Shown here piece after piece: positions 2,336 through 38,837 of a stretch of 38,837 nucleotides of DNA; position 1 is the first letter of the stretch, and every line of letters starts with the position of its first letter. The translations under genes and the position numbers were made by a program. The stretch is from Candidatus Woesebacteria bacterium (GTDB taxonomy: Bacteria > Patescibacteriota > Saccharimonadia > Saccharimonadales > EFPC-124). Where the stretch lies: assembly GCA_050115675.1 (NCBI GenBank), contig JASFQB010000005.1, positions 88,556-127,392 on the forward strand, written 5' to 3'. Under the pieces are notes generated by a model that saw nothing but the letters and a program-made list of their open reading frames with translations, was not told the DNA's origin and searched no databases.

Positions 2336-5300
2336 ATGACTAAGCCGCCAATGGGTCCAAGCCCGTCTAATTCAGAACTACTACCACATGGCGAGTATCT
2401 ACATGAGGGGCGCCTTAAAATTGTTATTGCAGGACTTGATAAAAACGTGCGGGCCCATGCAATGGAGGCGGCTAATCAAAGGCTTTCTGATAAACTGGGC
2501 GAGAATGGTTTTAAGGGGTTTTTGAATAAAATTTGGCACGGTGGTTTTGCGCGTGAGCATTATTTGCTAAAGTATGCAAAAGAGGCAAAAGCAGATATTG
2601 TTGAGTCTGATAATTTATTTGAAAACGAAGGCTTAAGCGCGGAAGAGTACAAAGTTGCAACAACTTTACGCTTTGCCCATGAATATGACGGTCTTGTCCA
2701 TGAAGAAGTTGGTGAGCATAGACACGTAGTTGATCGAAATGAAGACGGTTCTGTAGATGTTGAGGGGTACGAGCTTAAGCATCACCTTTTTGATCTTGTG
2801 AGTCAATATGCGGCTGGTGAATTTGATGGTCCAACCCCTGACGATACTGAACGAAACTTTAACGAAGAGGCGAGTCGTCTTATAACTGAGCTTATTGAGC
2901 GAGGGGTGATTTCTAAGGACCATGTGGGTGAGGCCAGGGTTAGGCTAGATAATTTGTATCAAGTTAGTCAGAATGTGCGTGTAATGGTTGATCATGGAGT
3001 TGGTCTTGATGAGATCGCTCACAATACAGACATCGTGCTTGGAGAGGCTAAGGTGGGGGCAAGAACCGAAGCTGATACTACTCGAGCCGAGAGGATGGTC
3101 GAGAAGCTGTCAGGCAAAGCTTGGATAAATGAGGGTACAGTTATACCTGCCGTTACGATTGCTATGAGTACGGCCAATTTTGCTGCAAAGGCTGGGGCAA
3201 GTGCAGCCGTTGCAGCTGTTGCTGGTATTGCTGTTCCCGGAGCATTGGCCGGTGTTTGGGCGGGAATGCGCGAGTCGGCTAGGTCAAAAAGAGAACTTAC
3301 TGAGCTTAAGAGGGGTATTGAAACGGGAAAAATAGAAAACCCAGAGTCTAGTATTATGCGTTCGGCAGAATCCCTTATAGACCAGTTAGGCGTTCTTTAC
3401 GATGACAATGGTGAGCTTAGGATAAGCGACGAAGATAGTATGTACGGAGTGTTGGCGACGATTGCTGAATGCGATTCTCGTATTTATCTTACAAATGTTA
3501 GCGAGCCGTTAATATCTGATGCCTCTGAAATGGATCGTTATGATCTTTATGTTGCTTTGGCAAAGGCAAAGAGTGATGTGGCTGACTTTATTCAGATGTC
3601 AAGTGATTCTCAACTTAGACAATTGGGCTATGATGACGTTGCGATTGCAGAACTTAGGCAGAGTGATGATTTAGTAGATGCAATTTTGGCTCCGTATATT
3701 GATGCCGAGGATGGTGTTTTAAGTAAAGAGATTACAAGTAATGCGCGCTTAGAGCGCAAAGCTCATCTGAAAAGAGTGGGGCTTGCGGCTCTCCAGGGGT
3801 CCGCGTTAGGAATATTTGCTGGTGGTGTCTCGCAAGAGCTTTACTCTTTGATGAACGATGAGATTCAGGGTGTTGTCGAGGGGAGATTAAATGCTAACTC
3901 TGATGCCAGGCAGACATTTTATCAGAACTTTATGGGTCGTGGCGAGGGCTCACATGAGGCTTTTGCGGATTTAACTAACTCTAATCGTACTGAATCTATT
4001 GGTTCTAGAGTGAATATCCAATTGCCGGAGGGGTTCAGTTTTGTTCGAGAGGGAGATGTGGCAACAGTAACGGGTCTAGATGGTTTTCGTGTTGAAAATC
4101 TATCCTTAACTGAAGATGGTCATTTTACTCCTGCTGCCGAACAAGCACTTGCTTCAAAAGGACTAAACCTAATAAGGTTCGAAGATATTTCGCCTGTAAA
4201 TGTCGAAAAAGAAACCGTAGTTTCGGCCAGAGAGTTTTTAGACAATCATCAAGATAATGTAACAAAAGTAACGCGCGATTTTTGGTACACAAATGCCATA
4301 GAAGGGCGTGCTGATGGTGCAGAATTGGGTATTAGCCAGGTGCGCGTAGATGCTGACGGCAATTATGTCGTTGATTTATCTGGCATGGGCGAAAAATCTT
4401 TTACATCCAATGGTCAAGAAGTTGACTGGCGGCAAGCGGCAAGCGAAGGTAAGCTATCTTTGGTTCTAAGTGCATCCAGCGGGAGTCAGTCGGAAGCTAT
4501 TATGCTAGACATTGATCCGTCGGGTCCTGTTGTTGTTGACAAGGATAGCTTTGCGGCTTCGATGTTTAGCCAACATGATGGCGAAGCAGCGATTAAGGGT
4601 AAGTTTTTGGAAGTGGTTGAGGTTGCTGGTCAAGATGAAGATGGAGTTACGCATATACGGCCTTTGGCTACTGCCGTTGGCGAGGGAGCTGACGTTTTTC
4701 AGGATAAGCTGCAAGTTGTTGAAAACGTGCAGTCTACTTTGTATAGTGCGGAGTATACTGCCCCTGAAGGCAATGCATCGCAAGTTGCTATTCCGTATGT
4801 TTTGCCTGTTTCTATGACGGGCTGGCAGCCGAGTCTAGGTAGGCGCAAGGAGTCTGGTCAGCCACTGACTACCGAAAACTCTAGAACTGAGCCTTACGAT
4901 AACGAGGCTTATAAATCTATGCCTAATGGCTTTGATAATGAGAATTATTTTGGGACTGAGTTTGATAACTTTGAAGACGATGACTTTGATAACGAAGCTC
5001 GGGCAGAGGCAGAGGCAAAAGTAGAAACAAAAACGCCCGAGGCAAACCACCAGTCTGTAAATGTTCCTGAGCTGGTTGTAGAGTTGCCTCCAGATAAATT
5101 CCAGCCTGCTGAGAATTTTAGGCAGCAATGGGAGTTTGAGATGTCTCCTACTTTGGAAGAAAATCCCGATGCGCAATTAGATATTAACGAAGAACTAGAT
5201 CGTTACATAGCCGACCAAGTAATAAGACATGGTCGTGAGTATGCAAATAATATTGAGAGTCAAAATAATACAATTGGCCTAAGTGAGCTCATTACTTCTG

Positions 5301-6709
5301 ATACTGAAGCAATTGTCTGCGCAAAGATCGAGGTGAGTGACAGCGGCATTCCTATTCGCGACATTGTATCTGCATATGCAAGGCAGGGCGAGGAGGCTGT
5401 GAGTAAGTCAGTATTTTTGATTGATATTGCATGGTCTGCTGATGTTAGCTCCGATGAGGATGCTGCAGCGTTGTTTTCTAGGGTTAATTCTGAGTTTGTG
5501 CGTGCGCGAGCTGAGTTTCCAAGCCTTAAAGTTACCGCTTATGCTAGGGACTGGCATGAGCGTGGCTCAATGACAGAGAATGAACACGCAAAAGAACGCT
5601 ACGACGTGGCTGCATTTGCAGCAGAAGCAGCTATAAGTGCTGGAAAACAGAACTCACTTGGTGATCTGTTGATAGTCTCAAACGACGCCAATGCTACAAG
5701 CATACCTGCAGACTACCTAGGCTCTTATATTAAGGAATTTGAAGCAAATCCAGAAACAGACGTCTTTACGGGAGCTTATGTAAGACAGGGAGCTGCCACT
5801 CCGGACTATCCTGGCTATGATGTAGTTATGTCGTTTTTGTCTAATTTAGAGGTTGAGCATCAGCAAGACAATCCGGCAATGACTGGATACGTTATACAAA
5901 ATGGATCAAACATGGCGTTTAGAATGTCAGCATATGCCGCAGTAGGTGGTTGTGCGGGCGAGGCTGTTAGGGCAGACGACGAGATCTGCCAAAGGGTAGT
6001 TAACGCTCGTCAGGGGTCAATTGGCGGTAGGCCTGTTGTGCAGCACGTTGCGGATGCGCAAGTTACCGCTACGCTTGAAACTGATGAATCGTTAGAGCAG
6101 TATAGGCGTGGCAATTGGGTTGCAGAGCCAGTATACGCTGGTGAGCAAAATGGTGCAATGATCAACGCAGAAGACCCGCAAAGCGATCTTAGCGGCATAG
6201 TTGACCGTATTGAGCTCAACGTAAACTCGTACATTGCTAACATACCTAGCAAGCCTGAAATTGTCGAGGATGCCTTGGTTAAGACGTTTGGCCCAATAAG
6301 TGGAAGTAAGGCGGCCTTTGTAATGCGTTGGAGTAGGGATTATACTAAGGCGCAATTTAATTTAACAAATATTGGTCGTCAGATGTTGTTGCAAAAGTTG
6401 ACTAATCCGAACACCGAGGAACCTGCAGAGTTGCCCACAGTGGAGTCTGTTGCAAATGGTGGTGTCGAAATAGAAAATAGCGAGATTACTCCTAGTGTAC
6501 CAAGCGTCAAGCCTAAAATTGGCGATATTTTGGTGTCTTCCTCTGGCATGCGTCTTAAGATAGATGGCACCGATGGTCGTGGCATGACTTGGTTTAAGTC
6601 GCTTATGCCAGACAATATTACGCCTTATCCTACACAGCCCCAAATTCGAGTTAACGAGCGTAAATTATCAGACATGTTAGTTTCGGGCGAATATAAAGTT
6701 TTGCGATAA
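2336..6709 (+). CDS. Giant multidomain protein: Gly/Ala-rich hydrophobic segments, beta-rich middle, acidic linker, degenerate GT2/GT-A-like domain
   Basis: Uninterrupted 1457-aa ORF. Hydrophobic segments at about 3140-3268 and 3776-3829. GT-A-like motifs LLIVSNDANATSIPADYL and GSNMAFRMSAYAAVGG. Confidence 0.7.
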   Translation: MTKPPMGPSPSNSELLPHGEYLHEGRLKIVIAGLDKNVRAHAMEAANQRLSDKLGENGFKGFLNKIWHGGFAREHYLLKYAKEAKADIVESDNLFENEGLSAEEYKVATTLRFAHEYDGLVHEEVGEHRHVVDRNEDGSVDVEGYELKHHLFDLVSQYAAGEFDGPTPDDTERNFNEEASRLITELIERGVISKDHVGEARVRLDNLYQVSQNVRVMVDHGVGLDEIAHNTDIVLGEAKVGARTEADTTRAERMVEKLSGKAWINEGTVIPAVTIAMSTANFAAKAGASAAVAAVAGIAVPGALAGVWAGMRESARSKRELTELKRGIETGKIENPESSIMRSAESLIDQLGVLYDDNGELRISDEDSMYGVLATIAECDSRIYLTNVSEPLISDASEMDRYDLYVALAKAKSDVADFIQMSSDSQLRQLGYDDVAIAELRQSDDLVDAILAPYIDAEDGVLSKEITSNARLERKAHLKRVGLAALQGSALGIFAGGVSQELYSLMNDEIQGVVEGRLNANSDARQTFYQNFMGRGEGSHEAFADLTNSNRTESIGSRVNIQLPEGFSFVREGDVATVTGLDGFRVENLSLTEDGHFTPAAEQALASKGLNLIRFEDISPVNVEKETVVSAREFLDNHQDNVTKVTRDFWYTNAIEGRADGAELGISQVRVDADGNYVVDLSGMGEKSFTSNGQEVDWRQAASEGKLSLVLSASSGSQSEAIMLDIDPSGPVVVDKDSFAASMFSQHDGEAAIKGKFLEVVEVAGQDEDGVTHIRPLATAVGEGADVFQDKLQVVENVQSTLYSAEYTAPEGNASQVAIPYVLPVSMTGWQPSLGRRKESGQPLTTENSRTEPYDNEAYKSMPNGFDNENYFGTEFDNFEDDDFDNEARAEAEAKVETKTPEANHQSVNVPELVVELPPDKFQPAENFRQQWEFEMSPTLEENPDAQLDINEELDRYIADQVIRHGREYANNIESQNNTIGLSELITSDTEAIVCAKIEVSDSGIPIRDIVSAYARQGEEAVSKSVFLIDIAWSADVSSDEDAAALFSRVNSEFVRARAEFPSLKVTAYARDWHERGSMTENEHAKERYDVAAFAAEAAISAGKQNSLGDLLIVSNDANATSIPADYLGSYIKEFEANPETDVFTGAYVRQGAATPDYPGYDVVMSFLSNLEVEHQQDNPAMTGYVIQNGSNMAFRMSAYAAVGGCAGEAVRADDEICQRVVNARQGSIGGRPVVQHVADAQVTATLETDESLEQYRRGNWVAEPVYAGEQNGAMINAEDPQSDLSGIVDRIELNVNSYIANIPSKPEIVEDALVKTFGPISGSKAAFVMRWSRDYTKAQFNLTNIGRQMLLQKLTNPNTEEPAELPTVESVANGGVEIENSEITPSVPSVKPKIGDILVSSSGMRLKIDGTDGRGMTWFKSLMPDNITPYPTQPQIRVNERKLSDMLVSGEYKVLR

Positions 6710-35448: not shown

Positions 35449-35477
35449 ATTGTATCTGTTATTTAAGGATATGTCAA
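35449..35477 (-). promoter_or_regulatory. Near-consensus promoter of rpmE-prfA-prmC
   Basis: TTGACA(35477-72)-N17-TACAAT(35454-49); ATG 10 nt downstream. Confidence 0.85.
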
Positions 35478-35768
35478 CTATTTACCGACGTTGAGTTGGA
35501 ATCTGGAGCTGTACCAAGACTCATTATTCGACGGCTCCCTCCCCGTAGCCCCATGATCACAAACCTTCACAGCCCCAGCTTCTATTAAGCTTTTTTCTAT
35601 TGGCTTAGCAACTTCCTCAGCTCTGTTAGTAGCAAAAGGGTTGCCGTTAAACGCTATGGTTAAGAATCCCCAATACACCAACCAACCCACAACAACAGGC
35701 ACTAATACTATTAATAGTATCTTGAACGAACACTTTAAAATATTTTGTATAGGTTTACTTTTTATCAT
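35478..35768 (-). pseudogene. Array paralog A, C-terminally truncated membrane-anchored protein
   Basis: 96 aa versus 189-191 aa for its paralogs; ends QLNVGK* where paralog B continues QLNVGKDQ. Confidence 0.75.
35560..35629. repeat. 70-bp direct repeat shared by paralogs A and C (copy 2 at 36778-36847)
   Basis: Manual alignment gives 69/70 identical. Confidence 0.9.
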
Positions 35769-35786
35769 GTTGTTGGTGATTATATA
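35665..35786. repeat. 122-bp direct repeat, copy 1 (copy 2 at 37512-37633)
   Basis: Manual alignment gives 121/122 identical. Covers the -10 box, start codon and N-terminal/TM coding region of paralogs A and D. Confidence 0.92.
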
Positions 35787-35805
35787 CCAAGTAGGGTGGT
35801 TGGGG

Positions 35806-36381
35806 CTATTTTTTACGTTCAGGTAGGCTTATACCCAAAGATATAGCAGTATGAGTATCATCGCCAATTAAGTACATACCGTTGCTACAAGATATCTTAC
35901 TTCTGTCTGTGTTGACATGTAAGCTCACTCCCAACTCAATATCCCCCTCCGCTAAATCACCATACGTACTAGGTTTGCGTGCTCCAAAGTTAAGAATAGA
36001 GTCGTAATAGTAATAGCTTAAATCATCTTGGCGCTCTAGATTATACTCATTATCCGCTGCCACTTTTTTAACAATCTCTATAGCCTGATCTTTACCGACG
36101 TTGAGTTGGTAGTAACCGGAGTAGTACGGAGTGCGTGTGTTCAAAGAACTCGTCCCATTACTCTCATTGTCACAAACTTTTGTAGCTCCAGCTGCAAGCA
36201 ATGATTTTTCTATGGGTGTTGCTGCGTCTTTGGCAGGATTGGAGATGAAAGGGTTATTGAATTGTAAAGAAAAAACAAAGACCGCCATGCAAACAACGGA
36301 TACTGTAATCGCAAGCGACAGAGAAACGACACTTATTGGTGTTTTTAAACTAAACTTTTTTAAGGATTGATCTTTTTTCAT
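35806..36381 (-). CDS. Array paralog B, membrane-anchored exported protein
   Basis: Basic N-terminus, TM helix, NPF..N.A...A.PIEKSL..AGA.KVC core, second Cys, C-terminal SLPERKK. Confidence 0.8.
   Translation of the reverse strand: MKKDQSLKKFSLKTPISVVSLSLAITVSVVCMAVFVFSLQFNNPFISNPAKDAATPIEKSLLAAGATKVCDNESNGTSSLNTRTPYYSGYYQLNVGKDQAIEIVKKVAADNEYNLERQDDLSYYYYDSILNFGARKPSTYGDLAEGDIELGVSLHVNTDRSKISCSNGMYLIGDDTHTAISLGISLPERKK
36172..36243. repeat. 72-bp direct repeat shared by paralogs B and D (copy 2 at 37406-37477)
   Basis: Manual alignment gives 72/72 identical, with further similarity on both flanks. Confidence 0.9.
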
Positions 36382-36413
36382 ATTATCTAAGAGTAGAAGG
36401 AGGTGATTTGAGG

Positions 36414-36983
36414 TTATTTTTTACGTTCGGGTAGGCTTACAGACAGCCCGAAAGTAGTACTGCCATCCTCCAGCCCGTCCGCATTAGTTTGGGCGCAATT
36501 TCCATTAGAGGCGGATACGTCATAATGTGTAAGTAAGTTAATGTTAAAAGCTATCCCTATGTCTCCGTTGTCAAGATTGGAGTATTCACTAGTCTTGCTT
36601 GCGCCAGCGTAGGAATAATAATCGTTTTCTTGCGTAAAGGCATCAAGGATATATCCATTATCCTTGGCTGCGGTGGATACTGTCTCTTGAGTTTCTTCCA
36701 CTGTGCCGTCAATTTTAAACGTTGCACTATACCAAGGTATTCTATTTGTAGCTTCGTATCCAGTGGCTCCTCTGCTGCAAACCTTCACAGCCCCAGCTTC
36801 TATTAAGCTTTTTTCTATTGGCTTAGCAACTTCCTCGGCTCTGTTAGATACAAAAGGATTATTATACTGTAAAAATAATGACACAAAAGGAGTAATCACA
36901 ATAACAGCAAGAACACACGTAGTAATTACTACAGCTCTACCTATTGAGGTTTTTAAAATTGGTGTGGTTAGTGGGTTTTTCAT
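36414..36983 (-). CDS. Array paralog C, membrane-anchored exported protein
   Basis: Same architecture; core NRAEEVAKPIEKSLIEAGAVKVC; C-terminal SLPERKK. Confidence 0.8.
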   Translation of the reverse strand: MKNPLTTPILKTSIGRAVVITTCVLAVIVITPFVSLFLQYNNPFVSNRAEEVAKPIEKSLIEAGAVKVCSRGATGYEATNRIPWYSATFKIDGTVEETQETVSTAAKDNGYILDAFTQENDYYSYAGASKTSEYSNLDNGDIGIAFNINLLTHYDVSASNGNCAQTNADGLEDGSTTFGLSVSLPERKK

Positions 36984-37039
36984 AGTGTCTAGGTTTAAGA
37001 GGGAGTGCTTTGGTTAGGGCTAAATTTGATTTGATAGAA

Positions 37040-37615
37040 TTACTTTCTGGGAGGAAACGACAAAGTAAGTCTAACGCCAGTATGATTAGTATCCCCAACT
37101 AGATTAATTGGACTACCTCCACTAAATGGACATGGCAAGTTCTTAGCCTCAGTGTTCGTATATAAATCTATAGACAATCTTTCGTCACCTTCTTTGAGAT
37201 CTTTATCTATACTCGATCGCGTGCCATCGTAGCTAAATACAGATTCGTAAAGCTGCGCACCAAGACTTAAGCTAAAACCACTATCCTTTGTAGCTTTCGT
37301 TATTTCGCTATAGACTTGGTCTTTACCGACATTGAATTGGTAGTAACCTGAGTAATACGGTGTATGCGTATTATCCAAAGGATTCGTCCCATTACTCTCA
37401 CTACTACAAACTTTTGTAGCTCCAGCTGCAAGCAATGATTTTTCTATGGGTGTTGCTGCGTCTTTGGCAGGATTGGAAATGAAAGGATTATCACTAGACA
37501 CGGCAAATACAAATCCCCAATACACCAACCAACCCACAACAACAGGCACTAATACTATTAATAGTATCTTGAACGAACACTTTAAAATATTTTGTATAGG
37601 CTTACTTTTTATCAT
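37040..37615 (-). CDS. Array paralog D, membrane-anchored exported protein
   Basis: Same architecture; core NPAKDAATPIEKSLLAAGATKVC; C-terminal SFPPRK. Confidence 0.8.
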   Translation of the reverse strand: MIKSKPIQNILKCSFKILLIVLVPVVVGWLVYWGFVFAVSSDNPFISNPAKDAATPIEKSLLAAGATKVCSSESNGTNPLDNTHTPYYSGYYQFNVGKDQVYSEITKATKDSGFSLSLGAQLYESVFSYDGTRSSIDKDLKEGDERLSIDLYTNTEAKNLPCPFSGGSPINLVGDTNHTGVRLTLSFPPRK

Positions 37616-37633
37616 GTTGTTGGTGATTATATA
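37512..37633. repeat. 122-bp direct repeat, copy 2
   Basis: Matches 35665-35786 with one mismatch. Confidence 0.92.
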
Positions 37634-37700
37634 TTAGTTAACAAAAAATCGCAAAAACCCCATTATGCCTATTGCGCGCGTGGGGAGCCTGTGCTAAAGT
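37626..37700. promoter_or_regulatory. Divergent promoters for the paralog array (-) and the cutinase gene (+)
   Basis: On -: TTGCGA(37654-49)-N17-TATAAT(37631-26). On +: TTGCGC(37672-77)-N17-TAAAGT(37695-700) with TGn extension. Confidence 0.65.
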
Positions 37701-37798
37701 ACTTTTAACGTCAAGGCCAAACCTAAGTAACCTTGATTAGCACTTTAAGATCAGACATCTGTTTTTGAGTAAAGAGAGGGTGATTAGGAGTGCGCGTA

Positions 37799-38837
37799 AT
37801 GCAAAGGCCTAAATGGCAAGCATTTTTACTTAGTATGGTAATGCTTGCTTGCTCGCTAATGGCTGTAGTGCTGCCTGCCAGTCCTGCACATGCGGACCCA
37901 GGTTGCCAGCGTGAGGGCTACTATGTAATTTATGCACGTGGTGCTACGGCGCCGTTGTTTTCTGCCGAGCAAAAAGAAGCCCTAAAGCATATTCACCATT
38001 TGTTGCCTGGTGCGGCCTGGGCTGAGCTTGGGAATATTGATGGCACAGTGCACGAAGATACAGACCCAAAAAACAACGTGCCCGACAGCAAGGTTAATGA
38101 TGAATACCCAGCATCAGGCTTTACCTATCCTATTAGTGTGAACATTGGTGTTAACGAGCTTGTAAAGCATCTTAACGATCGCTACAACCGCGCGGCCTGC
38201 GCCACTGAAACGCTGATTCTTGTGGGATATTCTGAAGGCGCTAATGTTGTTGGCGAAGCTATGAATCGTTCTGACTTGTCTAGCAGTGCAAAAACGCATA
38301 TTGGTTATGTTGCACTTTTTGGTGACCCTAAGTTTAAGGGGTACTTCTCTGGAGTTCCAGCTTGGGCAAAAGGAACTGCCAAATCCGACCATAGCAGTGG
38401 GTTTCTTTTTGCTCGTAACCCCTATGTTCCCGATTGGCTGACAGGCCGGCTGGGAAGTTGGTGCGATGATGAAGATGGCTTTTGTAATGGATATCCTTGG
38501 ATGGGCAACCACGGCTCCATCTACCGCGAATACTGGTTTAGGCAATCTGCTGCTACCATTGTGGCTATGGCAAAGCTAAAGAAGTATCAGCTCACTAATA
38601 GTCACTCGATCTCGTTATTTACAACTCAAGAAATTGCTCTTTTAAGTTCAGAATTGGCAAAGTACGGCACACTGCCTTTTGCGGTTCCTGCCGAAATTGC
38701 GTCTAAGGATTTCCCCGGCGACCCCTTCCGCCCCACCGCCATCAAACGCGACTCGGGCAATATGGAAGTCTTTTACAAAGACACCGCAGGTAACCTTATC
38801 GCACGCGGCTGGAGCGTAACCAGCGGCTGGAACTACC
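37799..38837 (+). CDS. Secreted cutinase-family alpha/beta hydrolase followed by a lectin-like beta-propeller repeat (3' incomplete)
   Basis: Manual translation, open to the window end. SD AGGAG 37786-90; signal peptide ending PAHA-D; C..VIYARG, GYSEG (38225-39), VALFGDP, WCDDEDGFC, NHG; then NMEVFYKDTAGNLIARGWSVTSGWNY. Confidence 0.85.
   Translation, partial: MQRPKWQAFLLSMVMLACSLMAVVLPASPAHADPGCQREGYYVIYARGATAPLFSAEQKEALKHIHHLLPGAAWAELGNIDGTVHEDTDPKNNVPDSKVNDEYPASGFTYPISVNIGVNELVKHLNDRYNRAACATETLILVGYSEGANVVGEAMNRSDLSSSAKTHIGYVALFGDPKFKGYFSGVPAWAKGTAKSDHSSGFLFARNPYVPDWLTGRLGSWCDDEDGFCNGYPWMGNHGSIYREYWFRQSAATIVAMAKLKKYQLTNSHSISLFTTQEIALLSSELAKYGTLPFAVPAEIASKDFPGDPFRPTAIKRDSGNMEVFYKDTAGNLIARGWSVTSGWNY

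Follow-up and report, generated by a model that had tools for sequence, protein, structure and literature searches.

Patchwork tandem paralogs of an exported protein family beside a cutinase-like esterase gene in a Saccharibacteria genome

Among described systems the closest counterpart of the locus reported here is the lpl cluster of the nuSa-alpha island of Staphylococcus aureus, a series of tandem paralogs in the same orientation whose products are exported and tethered to the membrane. Tsuru and Kobayashi (2008, PMC2568036) describe a conserved stretch in each lpl open reading frame (ORF) as a site of homologous recombination that shuffles the 5′ and 3′ variable regions. Near-identical DNA blocks between neighbouring surface-protein genes are also found in dedicated systems: diversity-generating retroelements (DGRs), the silent cassettes of the pilE/pilS type and invertase shufflons. 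Here we analyse a window of 38,837 nt, the terminal 38.8 kb of contig C5 of a Saccharibacteria genome (assembly GCA_050115675.1; 1.18 Mb in 10 contigs, 99.65% complete), in which four tandem paralogs (copies A–D, together termed array 1) share near-identical blocks in a patchwork and lie next to a gene for a cutinase-like serine esterase. General homologous recombination among the tandem paralogs of a lineage-specific protein family, with a probable partnership with the esterase, is in our view the best explanation of the region, and probably the right one.

Array 1 is made up of four ORFs arranged head to tail on the minus strand and separated by spacers of 32–56 bp (Table 1). Every copy has a start codon and a membrane anchor, formed by a hydrophobic N-terminal helix, followed by the motif NPF..N.A...A.PIEKSL..AGA.KVC, which corresponds to the invariant columns; a second Cys is kept in B, C and D. 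A first-pass annotation, made from the letters alone, had pointed out these common features and listed the shared blocks, and all of its figures hold exactly. A conserved nucleotide stretch, visible as an 83-nt repeat family, occurs in all four copies (61–94% identity to the reference copy). Outside the blocks, identity drops to 27–57% in 30-nt windows.

Table 1. Coordinates of array 1, its shared blocks and adjoining features in the window
Feature	Coordinates	Strand	Description
Copy A	35478..35768	-	96 aa, truncated: anchor, core motif and first strands; ends right past QLNVGK
Copy B	35806..36381	-	191 aa, full-length; own N-terminus, D-type core, C-terminal half nearest P0004
Copy C	36414..36983	-	189 aa, full-length; A-type core; closest whole-protein relative is copy G (array 2)
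Copy D	37040..37615	-	191 aa, full-length; heads the array, transcribed divergently from the cutinase-like gene
A/D block in A	35665..35786	-	18 bp upstream including TATAAT, start codon and first 104 nt (anchor)
A/D block in D	37512..37633	-	Matches 35665-35786; 122 bp, 1 mismatch
A/C core block in A (TNRAEEVAKPIEKSLIEAGAVKVC)	35560..35629	-	70 bp
A/C core block in C	36778..36847	-	Matches 35560-35629 over 70 bp, 1 mismatch
B/D core block in B (NPAKDAATPIEKSLLAAGATKVC type)	36172..36243	-	72 bp
B/D core block in D	37406..37477	-	72 bp identical to 36172-36243; 172 bp at 88% (blastn)
A/B identity (QLNVGK), truncation point of A	35481..35499	-	19 bp identical to 36091-36109
B/C common 3′ end (SLPERKK)	35807..35831	-	25 bp versus 36415-36439, 1 mismatch
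Cutinase-like serine esterase gene	37790..38837	+	PF01083, E 2.5e-14; signal peptide; divergent from D
Promoter-like site of rpmE	35449..35477	-	TTGACA-17-TACAAT, 11/12 consensus; immediately past the stop codon of A
Promoter-like site of D	37626..37654	-	TTGCGA-17-TATAAT, 10/12 consensus; -10 ends 10 nt before ATG

The significance of the blocks was assessed with a GENECONV-like test, in which 183 polymorphic ungapped sites were permuted 5000 times and the longest concordant runs were scored. The longest run was of 68 sites for A–D and of 29 sites for B–D (global p 2e-4 in each case), and of 21 sites for A–C (global p 6e-4); the B–C and C–D runs were not significant. The core blocks are of two types, 61% identical to each other, one carried by A and C and the other by B and D. 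Since each type occurs in a different pair of genes, constraint on the motif cannot explain the identities. The two core blocks begin and end at equal gene positions, about nt 139–210.

These data bear on whether any exchange is needed. If the copies were recent duplicates, the blocks might have been held identical by purifying selection while the remainder diverged under positive selection, and the blocks do cover constrained parts: promoter, start codon, anchor and the most conserved motif of the family. We consider this very unlikely. The two core types in different pairs show that the nucleotides are not fixed by constraint, the sequences outside the blocks have diverged almost to saturation, much further than selection would take recent duplicates, and no single tree can give A equal to D in one block and A equal to C in the next. 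Two proteins of related organisms (P0002 and P0004, described below) moreover show combinations of parts that differ between relatives. The first-pass annotation had argued that simple duplication cannot yield the pattern; the windowed identities, the permutation test and the segment identities agree, and recurrent recombination or gene conversion is the best reading of them. Its picture of conserved anchors flanking variable segments has to be redrawn: the strong blocks are all confined to the 5′ third of the genes (anchor and core), the only 3′ match is the short common end of B and C, and divergence extends over the whole of the last two thirds of the exported domain. The B/C match continues into the flank (43 nt at 81%).

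The first-pass annotation had suggested looking for more copies in the genome, and there is indeed a second array; beyond the two arrays, blastn and tblastn found no further copy. Array 2 lies at C1:1400-3065 and comprises three genes on one strand, E (195 aa), F (169 aa) and G (182 aa); behind them comes a 5′ fragment that matches E in its first ~20 codons. It has blocks of its own: E and G share 141 bp at 96%, several shorter ones occur, and the end of E with the start of F matches the end of G with the start of the fragment over 104 bp at 90%. The E–G and E–F runs were significant in the permutation test. Each array thus ends in a truncated copy whose 5′ end resembles that of the first gene of the array (A like D, the fragment like E). 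Between the arrays the best match is only 75–78% over about 70 bp, within the stretch of the 83-nt repeat. The presence of blocks within arrays, set against this lower identity between them, indicates that recent exchange has been confined to single arrays, as fits exchange that depends on proximity.

Relatives in other genomes help to place A. A full-length version of A is found in another assembly: the protein P0002 (193 aa) shares 81% identity with it in the anchor and 94% in the core, and in its C-terminal half comes nearest to B (50–62%). The N-terminal half of P0004 is likewise A-like (77% in the core) and is joined to a C-terminal half 65–80% identical to that of B. From this make-up it follows that the gene lineage of A was once complete, with a B-type C-terminal half. 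In the present genome B carries that half, following a D-type core, and the reading frame of A ends precisely at QLNVGK, which it shares with B. A tree of whole proteins groups C (array 1) with G (array 2) at 100/94 support and places B, D, P0002 and P0004 together in one clade (100/100). Judging from these sequences, several exchanges and at least one deletion would be needed, and we assign them no order. Among the arrays of relatives only a gene pair in G007 has such blocks (50 bp identical); they are absent from the three-gene arrays of G015 and G018 and from a pair in G013, that is, from three of the four. Exchange is therefore not a built-in property of the protein family.

We propose the following course of events. 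The locus would be a lineage-specific tandem expansion, within one Saccharibacteria family, of an uncharacterised protein family whose copies are old and highly diverged, and short tracts (about 70–170 bp) would have been swapped between them by RecA-type gene conversion and unequal crossing-over. Exchange would start at the most conserved stretches, namely the PIEKSL..AGA.KVC core and the shared 5′ end, and divergence on either side would limit the tracts, leaving a patchwork. That exchange starts where copies are similar and halts at divergence would give both core blocks their common limits. Copy A would be what is left, after truncation, of a gene that a relative still has at full length. 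RecA is encoded in the genome, and no dedicated diversification machinery would have been involved.

The first-pass annotation had gone further, to an undescribed diversifying cassette system, in which programmed recombination would shuffle exposed segments between anchors and so vary a repertoire of immunity proteins, adhesins or receptors. The patchwork identity, the shared start and end of the core blocks and the location of the proteins at the outer face of cells of an epibiont lineage would all suit such a system. The rest of the evidence makes it most unlikely. The remark that no recombinase is in view is accurate: a domain scan of the 32 other ORFs of the window found no recombinase, integrase, invertase or reverse-transcriptase domain. 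The sole reverse-transcriptase match of the genome (PF00078; C1:153210-153828, split over two frames or ORFs) is ~150 kb from array 2 and on a different contig from array 1. Inverted repeats amount to four short pairs in all, one of them a 16-nt palindrome within the A/D block. Every copy is a complete gene with start and anchor, so that there are no silent cassettes, and spare copies elsewhere are lacking. No alternative joints occurred among the assembled contigs of the sequencing runs, where rare variants are dropped. The block-free arrays of G015, G018 and G013 also speak against programmed shuffling, and the common block limits are simply the ends of the only well-conserved stretch.

Compared with the three dedicated systems named above, array 1 resembles them in its blocks only. 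DGRs differ in that no reverse transcriptase adjoins array 1, whose blocks have 0–1 mismatches over anchor and conserved core and no adenine-specific differences. Systems of the pilE/pilS type rely on promoterless silent copies feeding one expression site, which are not found here, and an invertase shufflon would call for an invertase and for more than the short inverted pairs seen. Recombination among tandem paralogs has its precedent in lpl, which shares with A–D the orientation and export of the products, the conserved nucleotide stretch inside every ORF and the incongruent histories of the 5′ and 3′ parts of one ORF. In array 2, as in lpl, a 3′ end, a spacer and the next 5′ end may form a unit (the match of 104 bp at 90%); in array 1 such a unit is kept weakly at most, in matches of 43 nt at 81% and 37 nt at 73%. 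The protein families are unrelated, the anchor here is a transmembrane (TM) helix and not a lipobox, and the lpl work drew on many strains, as against one Saccharibacteria genome and two related proteins. The mosaic is thus a textbook outcome of recombination among tandem paralogs and points to no new mechanism. The array is a fresh example of a known evolutionary process, and what deserves following is the link of its unnamed protein family to secreted esterases.

A mosaic in a metagenome-assembled genome could also arise as an artefact, from wrong paths through short repeats. The best holder among the sequencing runs contains 96% of the sampled words of the stretch and may be the source sample. 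Its unitigs break only at repeats, exactly at the blocks, which is what k=31 would lead one to expect; every block is the site of such a break, and the genome, a draft in 10 contigs, has repeats at its contig ends. The blocks themselves would exist on any path, and at 70–122 bp they are shorter than the 151-nt pieces available from three runs of three other studies (X2–X4). Such pieces cross block junctions in B, C and D with 0 differences. One piece from X4 (36715-36865) spans the whole A/C block in C; one from X3 (37466-37616) runs from the B/D block through private bases of D into the A/D block and past its single discriminating mismatch; others extend over the left boundary of the B/D block in B (36081-36231) and over the spacer between C and D (36962-37112). 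In the best holder, one unitig joins the A/C and A/D blocks through the 35 private bases of A. Parts of the stretch without cover in X2–X4 are no evidence of absence. Mis-assembly, which the first pass had named as one circumstance that would undo its reading, is therefore unlikely, and as an explanation of the mosaic we find it hardly credible.

The proteins belong to a family for which no model exists in the databases that we searched. A phmmer search with copy C returned 211 clusters at E≤1e-3, 80 of them at ≤1e-10, mostly of 170–200 aa. In an alignment of 58 members, a basic N-terminus and one hydrophobic helix are followed by the motif N-Y/P-A-x-E-x-A-x-P-L/I-E-x-x-L-x-x-x-G-A-x-K-x-C, a G-D-x-G-x-G-x-D-N-x-x-P-W-Y loop, the second conserved Cys and a C-terminal L-P-x-x-K; near-invariant residues are, in order, N, P, E, L, G, C, G, P, G, L, L, G, C, L and P. 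No Pfam family was above threshold for A–D. NCBIfam gave nothing for C, and at most 3 of the 58 members match any of its models, all weakly. A sequence search of the Protein Data Bank (PDB) with the array proteins gave no match. From the alignment and a structure model, each full gene appears to encode an N-terminal membrane anchor followed by an alpha/beta domain that is exported, measures about 140 residues and carries the two conserved cysteines.

In a confident AlphaFold2 model of C (pLDDT 88.2, pTM 0.75) a long N-terminal helix leads into an alpha/beta domain in which two helices accompany an antiparallel sheet. Foldseek found nothing in the PDB at E≤1e-3 for this model. The best matches in an exhaustive structural alignment are LppA of Mycobacterium tuberculosis (2v7s; Z 7.8, 107 residues aligned, rmsd 3.5), PA1624 (6td9; Z 7.6), SciW (6xrb; Z 7.2), the DUF4853 protein of Actinomyces odontolyticus (4mjg; Z 6.3), DcrB (6e8a; Z 6.1), 6e5d (Z 5.1) and 4pws (Z 4.9). 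The likeness to actinobacterial envelope lipoproteins of the LppA/LpqN/MTC28/DUF4853/DcrB-like alpha/beta sandwich type (2v7s, 6e5d, 4pws, 4mjg and 6e8a) comes without sequence similarity, and Z scores that are all below 8 may reflect just a common arrangement; membership of an LppA/DcrB/LpqN/DUF4853-like fold class is a lead only. The Atlas look-alikes of C are unnamed secreted Actinomycetota proteins, LppJ and DUF4853 (scores 0.79–0.90), which again are leads only, and the nearest structural cluster of C is mostly Candidatus Saccharimonadota by ESM Atlas label. Lipase-specific foldases (Lif) combine an N-terminal anchor with an all-helical domain (the Pfam lipase chaperone family). The array proteins were rejected as candidates for this class: the anchor is present, but no Pfam match reaches threshold and the predicted domain is a mixed alpha/beta sheet.

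Of 18 other genomes belonging to the same taxonomic family, 10 have a match to the array-protein family at E≤1e-3 (9 at 1e-5); no match came from 22 genomes of other families of the order or from 300 further genomes of the phylum. An unpublished genome, G001, is among those without a family match. Scans of a genome contig collection with B and with the family alignment gave no confirmed relative; in metagenome contigs one family alignment found 0 loci and another 3 loci, one of them too short to judge.

Some relatives depart from the usual form. Longer members (314–391 aa; G017:C58:13103-14047, the same as L027:7103-8047, with P0007 and P0008) have several extra N-terminal TM segments in front of the usual anchor and domain, and these segments carry repeated 'LSLY.D..NP' motifs. 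Family genes of relatives are interspersed with or flanked by small ORFs that have one hydrophobic helix at the N-terminus (L020:8320-8769, L020:9983-10531, L024:429-974, L023:10707-11249 and L029:6594-7124). Two small ORFs align weakly to the family profile over its N-Y-A motif and G-Y helix (hhalign probability 8–11%), and one small anchored ORF scores E 2e-4 with the family hidden Markov model. By their sequences these small anchored ORFs may be very diverged members; L020:9983-10531 and L024:429-974, at a profile probability of 8–11%, were not counted as array members. A pilin-like PsbP_2 neighbour was unrelated to the family by profile comparison. The product of the ORF L024:2170-2805 (G008:C16) joins an N-terminal methylation motif of the prepilin type to a PsbP-like domain (PF18933, 1.3e-8); among the neighbours of this ORF are a family gene, an M23 peptidase gene and a fragment of a cutinase gene.

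The esterase gene beside D matches PF01083 at 54 bits (cut-off 25.9). Its GYSEGA motif lines up with the GYSQGA of relatives, and it also has the conserved D..C and H columns; the Ser of GYSEGA, the D and the H are presumably the catalytic residues. Array 2 too is divergent from a cutinase-like paralog (PF01083, 7.4e-12; C1:1-1102). The gene beside D runs off the contig into a repeated C-terminal region, and in relatives of the esterase FG-GAP/VCBS repeats follow the catalytic domain. Both cutinase genes enter one and the same collapsed repeat: the final 127 bp of C5, when reverse-complemented, equal the opening 127 bp of C1 exactly, and unitig depth there is 119 versus about 45 around it. Near the ends of contigs C9, C7 and C4 there are further protein-level matches to this part of the esterase. 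A repeated C-terminal esterase module probably breaks the assembly at several places.

The proximity recurs in relatives. A secreted esterase is encoded within 1.3 kb of family genes at 6 of 10 assessable loci of relatives, or 8 of 12 when both arrays described here are included; three loci that begin at a contig end were left out of this count. The neighbour is a cutinase (PF01083) in seven of the eight, those of relatives being in G015, G013 (two loci), G014 and G008 (an N-terminal fragment), and a GDSL lipase in one, the second G008 locus. The opposite flanks vary, with rpmE at array 1, a DsbA-like gene at array 2 and others elsewhere, so it is the pair of esterase and family gene that is kept. 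Presence of the esterase family and of the array-protein family agrees in 16 of 19 genomes, a figure that, as these genomes are kin, does not amount to a statistical test; the only genome with a cutinase alone is G001, where the match is weak. Literature searches combining Saccharibacteria with cutinase, with lipase and immunity protein, with mycolic/esterase or with gene conversion gave neither a description of the link nor anything on the array protein family. New here are the second array, a family that lacks a Pfam or NCBIfam model and is limited to one Saccharibacteria family among the genomes searched, and its adjacency to esterases.

Two other kinds of neighbour were seen. The DsbA-like gene (G000:C1:3471-4142, equal to L031:2434-3105, minus strand; Thioredoxin_4, 9e-29) encodes a thiol-disulfide oxidoreductase; it comes right after array 2 and thus adjoins genes for exported two-cysteine proteins. 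Trehalase genes (PF01204) lie 0.3–2.3 kb downstream of family genes in L036 (1814-3403, E 1e-131) and in L021 (11497-13053, G018:C63, E 6e-135), two loci without an esterase neighbour; the trehalase gene of the present genome (C1:20062-21483) is 17 kb from array 2. That this proximity reflects use of trehalose esters of the host envelope is speculation.

Because the family adjoins cutinase-like or GDSL genes at most loci, the scales tip slightly towards the array proteins being functionally tied to the neighbouring esterase at the outer face of the membrane. As to the nature of such a tie, our best guess, a tentative one, is that they would act as inhibitors or immunity proteins that protect the membrane of the producer itself; the alternative, a little less likely, is that they would capture lipid released by the esterase. 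The guess of an immunity repertoire in the first-pass annotation gains indirect support from a neighbour that it had left unmentioned, the divergent cutinase-like gene, and from the recurrence of this neighbourhood in relatives. A complex prediction for the cutinase-like domain (36-285, 9-row alignment) with D (46-191, 58-row alignment) scored 0.01, 0.41 and 0.10 against a mark of 0.32, in a run without controls, and counts neither for nor against the tie.

Tle/Tli loci of type VI secretion systems, in which genes for lipase effectors are paired with tandem immunity paralogs, offer a parallel. In both cases a gene for a secreted lipolytic alpha/beta hydrolase stands beside one or several small paralogous genes, lineage-restricted and fast-evolving, for proteins exposed to the compartment in which the enzyme is active. 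The differences are that there is no type VI system here, that the enzyme has a Sec signal peptide, that the genes are mostly divergent and do not form one operon, and that the array proteins have no sequence or clear fold relation to Tli families.

A more specific proposal would make the array proteins dedicated partners of secreted cutinase-like esterases, with which environmental Saccharibacteria would act on lipid-rich actinobacterial host envelopes, possibly containing mycolate or trehalose esters. They would serve either as an immunity or inhibitor repertoire shielding the membrane of the epibiont or, within the same proposal, in lipid capture that feeds a cell unable to make fatty acids, and recombination within arrays would then create new specificities. 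The adjacency to esterases, the trehalases at two loci lacking one, and the actinobacterial lipoprotein look-alikes are consistent with it, and so is the described dependence of one Saccharibacteria parasite on mycolic acid synthesis by its host (PMC11880426, where cutinases do not come up). At this level of detail we regard the proposal as unlikely.

Several observations weigh against recombination with an esterase partnership as the account of this region. On the side of recombination, the A–B run (13 sites) reaches a pairwise p of 2e-4 but, at a global p of 0.07, is not significant by itself. The diverged parts align uncertainly and are not reliable at codon level, which weakens precise tract boundaries. 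No strain with another combination of blocks was seen, exchange being deduced from one genome and two related proteins. The pieces from other studies, ~2x deep and 100% identical, come from the same strain and carry little information on variation. On the side of the esterase, four of the 10 assessable loci of relatives (G018, G005, G017 and one in G014) are without an esterase neighbour, and metagenome contig L036 has a single family gene with no esterase within 7.5 kb. Most pairs of family and esterase genes are divergent, not co-directional as in typical effector–immunity pairs. The fold matches are weak, with 40 chains at Z≥5 and 0 at Z≥8, the latter being the caution line.

Recombination among tandem paralogs, together with a probable esterase partnership, remains the explanation that we prefer. 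A reduced genome of 1.18 Mb devotes seven genes and one fragment to one outer-face family and keeps reshuffling them, an outlay that suggests that the family is important for the interface of the cell with its surroundings or host. Were the tie to the esterase functional, it would provide a handle on how epibionts attack or feed on host envelopes without harm to themselves.

On the other side of the array, copy A abuts a promoter-like site of rpmE, and rpmE is followed by prfA and prmC. The remaining window is housekeeping in character, with genes for IF-2, fmt, def, priA, recJ, ftsA, ftsZ, nrdR, a class II ribonucleotide reductase and ileS; parA, parB, a signal peptidase, an LCP protein and an HtrA-like protease are also encoded. 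A 1457-aa ORF (2336-6709), without a Pfam match at E≤1e-5, lies between the IF-2 gene and a DUF5663 gene. The promoter-like sites of Table 1 are consensus matches only, since the scan gave 7 sites versus 5.9 ± 2.4 in shuffled sequences, which is not above expectation. D, A and E each have a TATAAT whose end is 10 nt ahead of the ATG (37616-37633, 35769-35786 and C1:1380-1399), and no Shine-Dalgarno-like sequence is visible upstream of any of the three; these genes may perhaps be read from leaderless or near-leaderless mRNAs.

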